Of a stretch of DNA of 64,000 nt, positions 15,174 through 27,928 are shown in pieces. The stretch is from Octopus vulgaris. Its lineage: Eukaryota. Each line of letters begins with the position of its first letter. The first letter of the stretch is position 1. The stretch covers positions 7,936,001-8,000,000 of the forward strand of contig OX597825.1 of NCBI GenBank assembly GCA_951406725.2, in the 5' to 3' direction. The notes below the pieces were generated by a model, which saw only the letters and a list, made by a program, of their open reading frames with translations, did not search any database and was not told the origin of the DNA. Made by a program: the position numbers and the translations under genes.

Positions 15174-15362
15174 AAGGCTGTGAAGATTTTAGAACATTTA
15201 TAAATAGAAGATGTTACAGCTGTTTCCAGGATATTTATTATATTCCTTCATCGGAGTAAGGATATAATAAATGAAGGGTATCCGATGAAGGAATATAATA
15301 AATATCCTGGAAAAAGCTGTAATACCTTCTATTTATAAATGTTCTAAAATCTTCACAGCCTT
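15174..15362. mobile_element. Short palindromic PLE-derived element (two inverted pLTR ends)
   Basis: ~82-bp inverted arms 15174-15255 and 15281-15362, each containing a hammerhead-like core. Confidence 0.75.
15275..15328 (+). ncRNA. Minimal type I hammerhead ribozyme-like motif (CCGAUGA core)
   Basis: Stem I AGGGTAT/ATACCTT, core CCGATGA, stem II AGGA/TCCT, G-GAAA, stem III (C/A)AGCTG (palindromic CAGCTG in the mirror arm), UA site. Confidence 0.6.
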
Positions 15363-15703
15363 GGTTTTTTATCTCATTCGGAAAAAAAAATTATATACAC
15401 ACGCTGATATATGACCTACGTTGGACTCCTTATTCACATAATCACCGAACTTGGAGGTCATCTATGGTCTATCCGTACAACTTGCTCAGCATTACCCGAC
15501 ACCTTTGGGTCTTACTGACACCATTACCTCTCATAACCACCTATATACATACATATATATGTGAATATATATATATGTATATACATATATACACATATAT
15601 ACATATATAGATGTATATATATATATATATATATATATATATATATATATATATATGAAAAAACAAGTCAAAAATAGAAAATGCTAAGATGATTTTATAG
15701 TGA

Positions 15704-15754
15704 ATCTTTCAGTACCGGTTTCGGTCATTTTGAGACCTTTTCAACTGTAACGAT
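15704..15754 (-). ncRNA. Minimal hammerhead ribozyme-like motif, U3:A8 variant
   Basis: Mirror copy of 16851-16901. Confidence 0.7.
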
Positions 15755-16296
15755 TAAATAATTAAATTTAGAAAAATTTAGAAAAATTAGAAGAAAGGTT
15801 TTTTTAAAGGAATACTTCCATAGTAGTGTTCAGATATAGGTGGCATTCTGCCTTTCTCTGACTCCCTTGTTTGCACTTGTGTATTCGAGGTCGTTGTGAG
15901 TTCTTGAGGGGGTGGGAGTGGGAAAATCTGGGCTGGTCAGTGGCGACCGGCAGTCGCTGCGTAGGCGTTATACTTAAAGACATTAGTGACAAGGTTAAGG
16001 GGTAGAAGGTGGAGAAGTAGAAGAAGAAGCAGAAGATGACGGTGCCGATGACGATGACGACGAAGAAGAAGAAGGAGAAGGAGAAGATGAAGATGATGAT
16101 GGTGGTGATGACGATGACGACGATGATGATGATAATGATGATGATGAAGAAGAAGAGGAAGAAGAAGAAAAAAACAGAGAAGGGAGAATATGAATGGGTG
16201 AAGATATAGCTGTGATAGGGCGATTAGTAATGGATTCTATGGAATGTAATATTTGTGTGTGTATATATATTTCTTTTATTCTTAAGTTGAGGTATA

Positions 16297-16757
16297 TTAA
16301 TTGTTTGTCGTAGACCCGTTAAGAAGTGGCCTGTATTTTATAATAAAGAGATTTTCTTTACTTATTCGTTGTCTCGAGGTTGTATCGTCCCTAAATTGGT
16401 AGAGGGGGAAATTCTGAAGTTTGGAGTTTTTTTGTTGGCGCAAGTATCTATGTGTTGGCTAAAAGCTATTTTTCTGTTTTGGGGAATTTTTATCTGGGAT
16501 CTGTGCAGGGCCATTCGTTTACGCAAACCATTTTTTGTTTGGCCTATGTACTGCTCTTGACACCCGGAGCAGGTTAGTGAGTATATTAGGTTCTCCGAAG
16601 CACATGTGAAGTTGCTTTTCACTGTAAACCGTTGTCCCTGTTTGAAGGAGAACTCAGAACCCTCGATTAGATAGTCGCATATCCAGCAATTGGGTCTTCC
16701 ACATTTTTTTACTGTCGGCTTCTGTGTTGAAGAGTGAATTCGGGCTTGTGTTAGGAG
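16297..16757 (-). pseudogene. PLE C-terminal zinc finger plus GIY-YIG endonuclease fragment (one frameshift near homopolymer runs)
   Basis: KKCGRPNCWIC...FTCASENLIYSLTCSGCQEQYIGQT...LRKRMALH...FSQH...KENLFIIKYRPLLN; typical Neptune-clade layout. Confidence 0.9.
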
Positions 16758-16850
16758 AATGCCACCTATATCTGAACACTACTATGGAAGTATTCCTTTA
16801 AAAACACCTTTCTTCTAATTTTTCTAAATTTTTCTAAATTTAATTATTTA

Positions 16851-16901
16851 ATCGTTACAGTTGAAAAGGTCTCAAAATGACCGAAACCGGTACTGAAAGA
16901 T
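16851..16901 (+). ncRNA. Minimal hammerhead ribozyme-like motif, U3:A8 variant
   Basis: CAG-TTGAAAA-GGTC-tcaaaat-GACC-GAAA-CCGG-TA-CTG: stems I and II pair, stem III is palindromic (ACCGGT), core UUGAAAA keeps the 3-8 pair. Confidence 0.7.
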
Positions 16902-17168
16902 TCACTATAAAATCATCTTAGCATTTTCTATTTTTGACTTGTTTTTTCATATATATCAACTCGTGTGTTCCTTTCCACCCTTATACATATATATATATAT
17001 ATATATATATATATATATATATATATATATATATATATATATTATATATATATATGTGAATATATATATATGTATATACATATATGCACATATACACATA
17101 TATATATAAATAATTATATATATATATATATATATATCTATACAATATGTTACATTACTCGGTAGTCA

Positions 17169-17231
17169 AGATAAAACTCTGAGTTTCAGATGCCGAAGTG
17201 GAAATCCACAACACCATCTCTTCGGTTATCT
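17169..17231 (-). ncRNA. Hammerhead ribozyme-like motif (CCGAAGA core) in PLE 3' end
   Basis: Mirror of 19593-19655. Confidence 0.7.
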
Positions 17232-17426
17232 GGCTATTTGAAAACGTTATGAAAAAATACCGTTAAAAATGAAGGGAAATTACTCTGTTATAACTCTGCT
17301 TTGCCTGCGTACTTATACATCGCTCGCATTTTTCGTCATAAAAATTATATAAAAATACATAAAAAATATATAAAAATATATAAAAATATATAAAATCTTC
17401 TTGGGACATAACACAGAAAGCATGTT

Positions 17427-25400: not shown

Positions 25401-25704
25401 CTACTGTTTTAGCTGTGTGAGGAAAATAGCGATAAGTGAATGAGATAAATCTCGATTCATGAAGTGTAACGACGAGAAAATTAGCGACCGAAACGGATCA
25501 AATGTAGCTGCATTAACAACAAGAAGAAGACGAAGACGAAGAATATGTTCAGCTGCTGGAACATTAGCAATAGTGTACACTATTTGGAATCAATGTTAGC
25601 AATAAAGAACCACAGAAATAGCGGTAACCACAATAATATTTGTAGCAGTAGTAGTAGTAGTAGTAGTAGTAGCAGTAGCATTAACTGTCTGACAATAGTC
25701 TTAC

Positions 25705-25736
25705 CTTTATGATGCTGTCAGACGGAAGACCATTGC
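25705..25736 (-). other. Candidate 32-nt microexon
   Basis: Minus strand: CTTTCGTTGACAG|GCAATGGTCTTCCGTCTGACAGCATCATAAAG|GTAAGA; only one open frame (xNGLPSDSIIK). Confidence 0.35.
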
Positions 25737-25922
25737 CTGTCAACGAAAGTATAATATTAGAGTAGAATGCATTTTGAAAATGGCGTAATTGTACGTAAAT
25801 TAGTTTCGAGCGTAAATAAGCCAGACGAAATATGATATTTTATCTAGTATTAACCCTACATTCGTGTCTAGGGTACTGTTTGTGCTTTTATATAAGGATG
25901 TGTTCACTAATATTTCGTCCTG

Positions 25923-26462
25923 TTAAGGCGGCGAGCTGGCAGAATCGTTAGCACGCCGGGCGAAACGCTTAGCGGTATTTCGTCTGCCGTTACGTTCTGA
26001 GTTCAAATTCCGCCGAGGTCGAATTTTCCTTTCATCCTTTCGGGGTCGATTAAATAAGTACAGTTACGCACTGGGATCGATATGATCGACTTAATCCGTT
26101 TGTGTTTCCTTGTTGGTCCCCTCTATGTTTATCCCCTTGTGGGCAGTAAAGAAATATATATATATATATATATATATACTCTTTTACTCTTCTACTTGCT
26201 TCAGACATTTGACTTTGGCCATGCAGGAGCACCGCCTTTTAGTCGAGCAAATCGACCCCAGGAATTATTCTTTGTAATCCTAGTACATATTCTAGGTATT
26301 TCGTCTGCCGTTACGTTCTGAGTTCAAATTCCGCCGAGGTCGACTTTACCTTTTATCCTTTCGGAGTTATTGACAAGTTAAGTACATGTTGCATACTGGG
26401 GTCGATGTAATCAACTGGCCCCCTCCCCAAAGATTTCGGGCCTTATGCCTGGAGTAGAAAAG
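25923..26462 (+). mobile_element. Dimeric SINE family B interrupted by an inverted family A tail; single 14-bp TSD
   Basis: B monomer 25925-26155, A tail (minus) ~26177-26290, second B monomer 26295-26462; TSD AATATTTCGTCCTG at 25909-25922 and 26463-26476. Confidence 0.85.
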
Positions 26463-27437
26463 AATATTTCGTCCTGGTGCGGCGAGACTATTCTTCACTG
26501 CTGCCGCTAAAAGCATACATAACAACATCCAGATTTCTCTGCTCTACTTCTCAGAAAGCAAGAAATAATTAATGATCAATAAAGATAATTCTGATCTCGG
26601 AATGTTTTATTCTATTTTAAATTGTGATGTTCAATACATTAAATATACTCGCACCCTCTTTCACCTGAAATGTAGTCTGGCATATTCTAACACTAACATC
26701 TTCACCTGGATGTAGATTATTTGACGCTAATTAACTACAGAGCAAAATTGAAAAAAAATTCTTAGTTCTTTTCTTTACATTATTTTTATAGTGTGTGAGT
26801 TTAATGTTGAAGGTTAAAGTATTTAACTTAATTATCTATTACGATATTGGCTGGGATATATTGCTTCTTTTATCAATAAGCAATTATTTAGTTGAGTAAA
26901 TAGCATACCTCTCCGCATTGTATTACATAACCCTACAACACCCGAAACGAAATATGGAAAGCCATTCATTATGTCTTATTACCAATCTACACTTTCACTA
27001 TACACTGTATTGTGCTTTACGCTAAAGTGATCATCTTCAAGAAGTATTCTATATGCCCGTCTACAACATCCAAATCTTAAAACAAAAACAAAAACAAAAA
27101 CAAAAACAGAGCTGAAGAAAACACACCCCAGCTTCTCCAAATGGGTTGCTTATTAATTCAGTTCTATATTTAAGAGATGGGGAATTATGTACATTATTTC
27201 TTCCGATTTTACGTTCGGATTTCAAATGCAACCAAAGTCTAACATGCCTTTTATTCTTTCTGTGTCGATAAAATAGGAACCAGTTTTGTACGGGTTCAAT
27301 GTTACAGGGTAGCCACCTCCCCTTAAAATTACTGCTCCTTGAGCAAAATTAGAAAAAAGAAATATTAGACAATGATTTGTGAGCATTATTTACATTATTT
27401 ACATTTAATCGGATATTTGTCCCCGCCTTTTTTTTTT

Positions 27438-27483
27438 AACACAACGTTTCGACTGATATACCCTCCAGCCTTCATCAGGTGTC
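27438..27483 (-). ncRNA. Minimal type I hammerhead ribozyme, canonical core
   Basis: GACAC-CTGATGA-A-GGCTG-gagggtatat-CAGTC-GAAA-CG-TT-GTGTT; stems I and II pair and stem III is the palindrome ACGT. Confidence 0.85.
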
Positions 27484-27558
27484 TTGGGGAAATTTCGACC
27501 CTGGATTCTCATTCCTGAGGTATTCTCCGATGAAAATCCAGGTTCGAAATTTCCCCAA

Positions 27559-27604
27559 GACACCTGATGAAGGCTGGAGGGTATATCAGTCGAAACGTTA
27601 TGTT
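27559..27604 (+). ncRNA. Minimal type I hammerhead ribozyme, canonical core (one stem I mismatch)
   Basis: Same as the mirror copy but GTGTT>ATGTT. Confidence 0.78.
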
Positions 27605-27928
27605 AACAACAAACAAGATGAGGACAAATATCCGTCGAATGTAAATAATGTAAGTAATGTAAATAATGTGCTTATTAATTGGTCAATAAATGTTTTCCTG
27701 AAGCGAACCAATAACTCAACCAACGCAAATTACATGGAAAGACAAAATTAAAAAGAAACTGCAATACATATGCGTGTACGGGTGTAAGTAATGCAAAAGA
27801 ATAAGGATTTGCATTCCGGGTAGATACCTTATTGGCACCGTGATATAGTCAAGACGGGGGTAACCTCATCGCATGATAGAAAACATACAGAAGTGTTGAA
27901 GATAAACAAATATGCGTGTATGCGTTTG

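Follow-up and report, generated by a model that had tools for sequence, protein, structure and literature searches.

Penelope-like element insertions as hammerhead-bearing palindromes in Octopus vulgaris and a tRNA-derived head in one coding family

A 64-kb stretch of the 2.8-Gb Octopus vulgaris genome (G000:C12:7936001-8000000), referred to here as the window, contains four inverted-repeat elements, named A, B, C and D, which carry outward-facing hammerhead ribozyme motifs and belong to four unrelated high-copy families. They are probably four separate insertions of Penelope-like elements (PLEs), each likely to have arisen by the head-to-head joining of two reverse transcripts, and in family D a tRNA-derived head is likely to be an RNA polymerase III (Pol III) promoter at which most copies begin. 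The palindromes are known PLE debris, and their layout in the window is an already published PLE arrangement, an inverted 5'-truncated copy with a one-sided tail having been described (PMC8557442, PMC3846280). The new feature is the tRNA-headed coding PLE, which lies outside the window.

The head of family D was found upstream of the hammerhead, where an (AAT)n tract is accompanied by a segment of 75 nt whose A and B boxes match the consensus. Among 35 distinct tRNA sequences, the best alignment of the segment was to the tRNA-Arg genes of the genome, with a score of 61 against a maximum of 47 in 500 shuffles. Short interspersed elements (SINEs) derived from tRNA-Arg are known in octopus from older reports. 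The head is located between the endonuclease stop codon and the hammerhead, and because it follows the endonuclease 3' untranslated region (3'UTR) in 26 of 30 loci picked by their endonuclease, it is part of the family D coding element. Among head loci picked by similarity, the same 3'UTR was present upstream in 4 of 39. Exact matches to family D 20-mers numbered 876 for the endonuclease, 843 for the 3'UTR, 5148 for the head, 8060 for the body and 70 for the start of the open reading frame (ORF) past the tail. The first 30 head matches on contig C1 comprised 25 copies starting within -12 to +14 of the head, 2 starting inside it and 3 starting upstream. The first 30 body matches gave 17 copies with the head, 1 with the 3'UTR and 12 with neither, and 22 of them had an inverted partner; the D copy of the window, both arms of which end just 3' of the head, is of the headless kind. 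The same head boundary was met in sequencing runs labelled as four organisms. It is quite probable that the head marks the 5' end of the family D RNA, which would begin about 7 nt before tRNA position +1. Processing by an RNase P-like cut at +1 was considered and is disfavoured, as many copies retain the leader of about 7 nt.

The short family D copies resemble SINEs in that they have a head of tRNA origin in which both the A and the B box are present, in a 3' end held in common with a partner element and in their target-site duplications (TSDs). It was considered whether they form an independent tRNA-SINE family with masters of its own, which borrows the PLE enzyme and whose head was captured separately by the coding element. 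Such an origin would suit the abundance of short copies, which are about 6- to 9-fold commoner than endonuclease copies, and several loci with head, hammerhead and truncated ORF start might be its masters (L078, L081, L086, L089, L090). It is nevertheless distinctly unlikely, since the head is constitutive in coding copies and all 23 common variants tested were shared by 28 endonuclease-linked and 105 head-start copies (smallest P 0.06). No variant diagnostic of a separate master lineage was found in this comparison, which has limited power with only 28 copies in the first class.

As regards the polymerase acting at the head, the chances of Pol III are put at about even on what the sequences offer. 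No run of four T residues (T4) occurred in at least 20% of copies anywhere along the D unit (median coverage 28 and 36), as against 14 conserved T3 and 32 A4 sites, and the observed to expected ratio of T4 was 0.18 in D compared with 1.0-3.8 in B, C and fragments of long interspersed elements (LINEs). Over the D unit, 6.3 runs were expected under a single-base model (P ~0.002) and 3.9 under a first-order model. The scarcity of T4 is thus suggestive of Pol III but not proof, with P ranging from 0.002 to 0.3 according to the null model.

A number of observations weigh against the interpretation of the head as a Pol III promoter and 5' end. In synonymous-codon shuffles of 750 codons, 2.3 T4 runs were expected and 1 was observed (P 0.29), and in triplet shuffles the deficit was not significant. 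The Rfam tRNA model gave no match on one head copy and 20 further ones, and ARAGORN called only 2 genes overlapping the head in 30 loci; on the 64-kb window it called no tRNA gene. Exact-match counts, including those given above, vary with local divergence. The CpG sites of the B box were not specially protected (0.22-0.31, against 0.24-0.53 elsewhere). In three RNA runs, both mate directions showed equal depth and molecule starts or ends were not piled up; read depth was 300-2500 per direction from head to tail and below 60 beyond, which fits passenger transcription and is silent on Pol III. Finally, family C is headless, yet 17 of 30 copies start near the hammerhead, and because its 5' ends pile up in this way, a Pol II start in the pseudo-long terminal repeat (pLTR) would give a similar pattern of 5' ends.

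This last point bears on a rival account in which the head is what remains of a SINE or tRNA inserted long ago, and in which RNA starts from an internal Pol II promoter or the reverse transcriptase (RT) stops by snap-back at a mini-hairpin (TGCCC-NN-GGGCA). The Penelope element of D. virilis does have a TATA-less Pol II promoter and a start site within its pLTR (PMC2377424), and 166 loci fold back at the mini-hairpin. A relic is somewhat unlikely all the same: the copies have their edge some 7 nt ahead of tRNA +1, the place expected for the beginning of a Pol III leader, both boxes are intact though the stems have decayed, and T4 runs are absent in family D only. The 5-bp hairpin is also weak, and an enzyme blocked by structure would be expected to halt on reaching the 3' side of the head, not its 5' side. 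A further step beyond the Pol III promoter would be that the sense strand of family D has been purged of T4 terminators and that the element makes its own SINEs, so that it would represent a surviving stage on the way from PLEs to hammerhead SINEs of the Sm-alpha type; we regard this extension as unlikely.

For the Anolis element PAc, it was reported that two internal RT start sites are used in vitro, that both target strands are cut and extended and that ribozyme cleavage is not needed (PMC11167929). In the mechanism proposed here, the PLE enzyme would nick both strands of the target, and from each nick reverse transcription would be primed, beginning at either of two sites just within the start of the ORF. 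The two complementary DNAs (cDNAs) would be joined by microhomology or a brief fold-back, and the product would be a pair that faces outward and has a single tail. As the RNA would begin in the pLTR, one of the RT start sites would be only about 150-330 nt from its 5' end, and copying from this site would yield short coding-free products, which would be common for that reason. Most templates would not have been cut by the ribozyme, and the positions of the ends would not depend on it. The templates of family D would include Pol III transcripts that start at the head, so that SINE-like copies would be derived from the repeat of the autonomous element itself.

In 113 inverted pairs, the far tail was present on exactly one arm in 95, on neither in 9 and on both in 9 (binomial P 8e-14 against 0.5), and TSDs of at least 10 bp, with a peak at 11-13 bp, were found in 41 of the 95 one-tailed pairs. 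Junctions were mostly distinct, in 16 of 18 junction pairs from family D palindromes chosen for their likeness to that of the window and in 20 of 25 short junctions; among the 25 short pairs, three junctions recur. At seven loci with repeated junctions, inspection revealed no clear common set of private changes, and the tail side differed within one group. All 13 A palindromes examined differ at the centre (by eye) and so do the C pairs; C palindromes form a length continuum from 80 bp to 3.9 kb, and inverted partners of B are spaced from <0.3 to 5 kb.

The preliminary description had taken the short palindromes for a non-autonomous, ribozyme-bounded class mobilised by PLE enzymes. Mobilisation by such enzymes is upheld, whereas a self-copying class is at odds with the mostly distinct junctions, the one-sided tails and the length continuum, and very probably no separate palindrome class exists. 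Bounding by ribozymes was not borne out either: the arms in family D stop at two fixed points, some 50 and 75 nt beyond the cut, and fold-back near the cut was seen in 32 loci against 8060 exact matches to the 20-mer 5' of it, and ends set by the ribozyme were rejected for these two reasons. Copying of the palindromes as units could draw on the thousands of coding-free copies, on the inverted partners at 22 of 30 unbiased body loci and on the recurrent junctions, one of which was found in 166 loci and counts in its favour. In the samples examined it is largely refuted and highly improbable, the tail being one-sided, its side variable where junctions repeat, and the single ribozyme of each strand buried in a hairpin. 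At the junction in 166 loci, the fold-back length varied from 0 to 30 nt in 22 copies without the 3'UTR, which fits repeated de novo events. Two other candidates were rejected: a MITE (miniature inverted-repeat transposable element) or fold-back DNA transposon, because the ends are asymmetric and the centres variable where fixed symmetric repeats and a fixed centre belong, and a non-LTR (long terminal repeat) retrozyme, as neither direct tandem units nor ribozyme-set ends were found.

For the inversion step only, self-priming fold-back on a single template (Arkhipova 2013) is an alternative to twin priming, possible though rather doubtful. Palindromic junctions are treated in PMC3846280, fold-back occurs at the head hairpin, and the two arms agree more often than by chance at core position 7: among 80 arm pairs, 13 were AA, 57 TT and 10 mixed, where about 28 discordant pairs would be expected, a result that speaks against twin priming insofar as it also fits fold-back on one template. 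The 10 discordant pairs, however, compare with an estimated 2 or so from background change, which argues for two templates in some events, and the folded stretch is usually short and followed by a jump to a second, differently truncated arm. The arms of the palindromes thus often come from one source and sometimes from two.

The hammerheads were searched for with a relaxed type I descriptor, and 100 block-shuffled windows were used as the null. One outward motif per strand had been claimed for each element, and seven matches were indeed obtained in the window, all within the four elements and all pointing outward, compared with a mean of 0.34 and a maximum of 2 in shuffled windows. In five of them stem I has at least 3 bp (shuffled mean 0.02), and these five combine the core, stems I and II and the palindromic or 1-nt stem III of a minimal type I hammerhead. 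The cores and stem III sequences first described were also recovered, namely CCGAUGA with CAGCUG in A, UUGAAAA with ACCGGU in B, CCGAAGA with a 1-nt loop in C and CUGAUGA with ACGU in D. In element A the cores stand but the motifs are not intact: the left one has lost stem I, which is GUCU/AGAC in the family, and the right one, an eighth motif, has a C>A change in stem III, and with this stem broken it was missed by the descriptor. In the right motif of D, a mismatch adjoins the cut. No hammerhead model appeared among the 150 of 315 Rfam window matches listed, which are microsatellite and microRNA noise. The cores of A and C, both with C at position 4, are also alike in having an additional base that separates stem II from GAAA; this combination is possibly a linked structural variant.

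Among 253 D copies, the sole common core variant outside CpG was at position 7 (T 0.74, A 0.25), and no stem was changed on both sides; the D motif is also protein-coding. RNA reads of family D had no ends piled up at the cut, the library type being uninformative for cleavage. Palindrome transcripts would carry one ribozyme per strand inside a hairpin with a predicted folding energy of -122 to -184 kcal/mol. The earlier proposal that double-stranded RNA from palindromes may feed ADAR or small interfering RNA pathways is plausible in view of this folding; in the RNA reads, mismatch places (A>G 14-16, T>C 15-16, G>A 14-19, C>T 17) leave editing inseparable from copy divergence.

The PLE origin first proposed for all four elements holds for B, C and D, for which coding partners were found, and A is left with no proven partner. 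Element C is a palindrome derived from the 3' half of a young PLE and is 99% identical to a 2.58-kb unit in locus L357. This unit has the features by which the Hydra clade is defined (PMC8557442): a length below 3 kb, RWK, DKT in place of DKG, a CxCX5C linker (CSCRNKELC), no CCHH and a (TA)n target. A 24-mer across the C cut site has 4095 exact matches. The unit in L357 bears one frameshift near the ORF start, and at G000:C1:57208880-57222552 six C hammerheads are spaced by about 2580 bp, as tandem near-full Hydra-type units; four of them share a strand and two lie on the opposite one. Element B is of the Neptune type, its translation showing a C-terminal GIY-YIG domain with a CX2-5CxxC linker and CCHH. 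Its order is endonuclease, 3'UTR and pLTR, and the best 40 genomic matches to the pLTR are all 100% identical. The endonuclease fragment matched Pfam GIY-YIG with E=6e-4, under the curated cut-off, and no long ORF that could be the full RT-endonuclease frame was found at locus L358. Family A loci have upstream sequence in common over as much as 582 nt, truncated at scattered points; 1 of 30 loci (L139) has a GIY-YIG ORF further upstream, with a microsatellite in between.

The structure of family D was pieced together from loci L373, L380, L089 and L240. It is of the Penelope/Poseidon type, with DKG, an RT with YVDD, a C-terminal GIY-YIG with CCHH and no zinc finger in the linker; the RT matched Pfam RVT_1 with E=1.2e-4, under the cut-off. 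In L373 and likewise in L380, ORF pieces with DKG, GIY-YIG and the RT catalytic region are enclosed by two pLTRs, so that the whole layout is seen in single loci. The hammerhead sits within the first codons of the ORF, and at other loci the D tail continues into the PLE N-terminus. Family D looks old, because its copies are 7-10% diverged and all translated coding copies are broken. CpG sites in the copies have each decayed by 22-53%, compared with a few percent elsewhere, and this high decay points to methylation of D copies in the germline. On contig C29, D copies (L063, L064, L066, L067/L082, L073) have a common junction from the ORF start to the pLTR, which makes up a 276-bp hammerhead unit; it is in tandem in L067/L082, and the junction has six exact matches genome-wide, all on C29. 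The unit may be a retrozyme-like offshoot or a local duplication.

The features of the window are collected in Table 1. The inverted repeats were located by self-BLAST and a repeat search, which confirmed that the four are present and have no similarity to one another. They span 15174-15362 in A (88% identity) and 27384-27659 in D (86%); the arms in B are 15649-15849 and 16756-16956 (100%), and the repeat in C covers about 17132-19692, with blocks of 564, 439 and 212 nt at 100%. While the palindromes were as first described, the outer boundaries were not, and all four elements reach further out: the right arm of A matches its family to at least ~15540, its right end being approximate, the one-sided tails of B and C run to ~16985 and ~19757, and D spans 27159-27669 in all, flanked by an 11-bp TSD. 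The insertion in the left arm of D has 12 matches elsewhere in the window (67-81% identity).

Table 1. Features of the four palindromic elements, in window coordinates
Feature	Position	Strand	Remarks
Element A	15174..15540	.	Head-to-head pLTR pair, arms 15174-15256 (-) and 15278-15362 (+); long one-sided 3' extension
Element A hammerhead cores (CCGAUGA)	15254-15248; 15282-15288	-; +	Damaged in both arms
Element B	15649..16985	.	Minus-strand 5'-truncated Neptune-type PLE; inverted pLTR of 201 bp; tail on one side; within (TA)n
Element B hammerhead cores (U3-A8)	15744-15738; 16861-16867	-; +	
Element B GIY-YIG endonuclease fragment	16365..16778	-	CX4CxxC linker; two Cys within GIY-YIG core
Element C	17132..19757	.	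Almost perfect palindrome; its unit is the 3'-terminal 1.28 kb of a young PLE of the Hydra type, with RT end, endonuclease and pLTR
Element C tail	19693-19757		Right arm only
Element C hammerhead cores	17225-17219; 19599-19605	-; +	
Element D left TSD	27148..27158	+	11 bp; second copy 27670-27680; only two occurrences in window
Element D left-arm PLE tail	27159..27199	-	Pushed aside by later insertion
Later insertion splitting D left arm	27200..27385	+	Initial 90-160 nt resemble the common SINE-like repeat of the window
Element D	27384..27669	.	Head-to-head pLTR pair, Penelope/Poseidon-type family
Element D hammerhead cores	27478-27472; 27564-27570	-; +	- intact; + with stem I mismatch

Elements B and C and the extension of A adjoin within one (TA)n field, and a TA-rich motif of about 55 bp flanks B as a direct repeat (15546-15610 and 17040-17115). 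A fifth short palindrome (35675-35818, 86%), within 35620-35820, is located in (TA)n and has a one-sided left extension and no hammerhead match; it is possibly from another PLE family. Further inverted matches (11672-12010, 42057-43651 and 13022-13262) represent two pairs of opposite-oriented SINE-like repeats and a TA-centred imperfect palindrome, with no hammerhead, and broken LINE-type RT fragments are found at 45899-46956 (+).

The samples amount to a genomic test of the two-start-site mechanism established in vitro, with a single start site used by each arm in 95 of 113 pairs and few copies made from RNA cut by the ribozyme. If the head is indeed a promoter, a coding PLE with a Pol III promoter in its own repeat would show the birth of a SINE inside its partner, would hint at how hammerhead SINEs like Sm-alpha arose and would mean that PLE pLTRs are hidden among the repeats labelled as SINEs or MITEs in such genomes. 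Were the whole D unit a Pol III transcript, translation of an uncapped RNA would be required. No tRNA-headed PLE or PLE-mobilised tRNA SINE was found in the literature searched, Repbase/Dfam, subscription papers and supplements being outside the search; no tRNA-headed PLE is described in the passages considered of PMC13282606, PMC8967140, PMC8848866 and PMC7229834, and the words 'tRNA' and 'promoter' have no occurrence in the main text of bioRxiv 10.64898/2026.07.22.740005.

Several known systems share parts of this arrangement. Minimal hammerheads have been reported in PLE pLTRs, with a U3-A8 core and with dual motifs on opposite strands 100-700 bp apart (PMC4209133); the palindromic helix III, the extra base after position 9, the U3-A8 core and the opposite-strand pairs recur here, whereas cores with C at position 4, as in A and C, were not found among the pLTR hammerheads in the part of that work considered. 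Endonuclease-containing PLEs with a one-sided tail of 30-40 bp (PMC8557442, PMC3846280) are similar in their head-to-head pairs, TSDs of 8-12 bp, microsatellite targets and clade motifs; the tail of family C is about 93 nt, and no tRNA-derived pLTR segment was found in the passages describing those elements. Non-LTR retrozymes (PMC7229834; bioRxiv 10.64898/2026.07.22.740005) are likewise derived from pLTRs, bear hammerheads and are non-coding but, as far as these sources were considered, consist of direct tandem units cut to monomers, unlike the copies found here.

Family D is close to the Anolis Poseidon element PAc in its two RT start sites in the ORF start, its hammerhead over the first codons and its uncut RNA template, but the relevant passages of PMC11167929 mention neither a tRNA head nor a Pol III transcript for PAc. 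The Schistosoma repeats Sm-alpha and Sj-alpha (PMC6765202, PMC2770079) resemble family D in that a tRNA-related Pol III promoter is followed by a type I hammerhead; they are described as non-coding tandem repeats cut by the ribozyme, whereas in family D the module lies within a coding PLE and the copies, scattered or in inverted arrangement, have their ends at RT start sites. In the literature considered, promoters derived from small RNAs are taken as characteristic of non-autonomous elements. The TRIMp3 elements Cassandra, Helenus and Ajax have such a Pol III promoter within a terminal repeat (PMC10886601). These are non-autonomous LTR elements whose autonomous partner is expected to use Pol II and to lack that repeat; in family D, it is the coding element itself that carries the promoter-like repeat.

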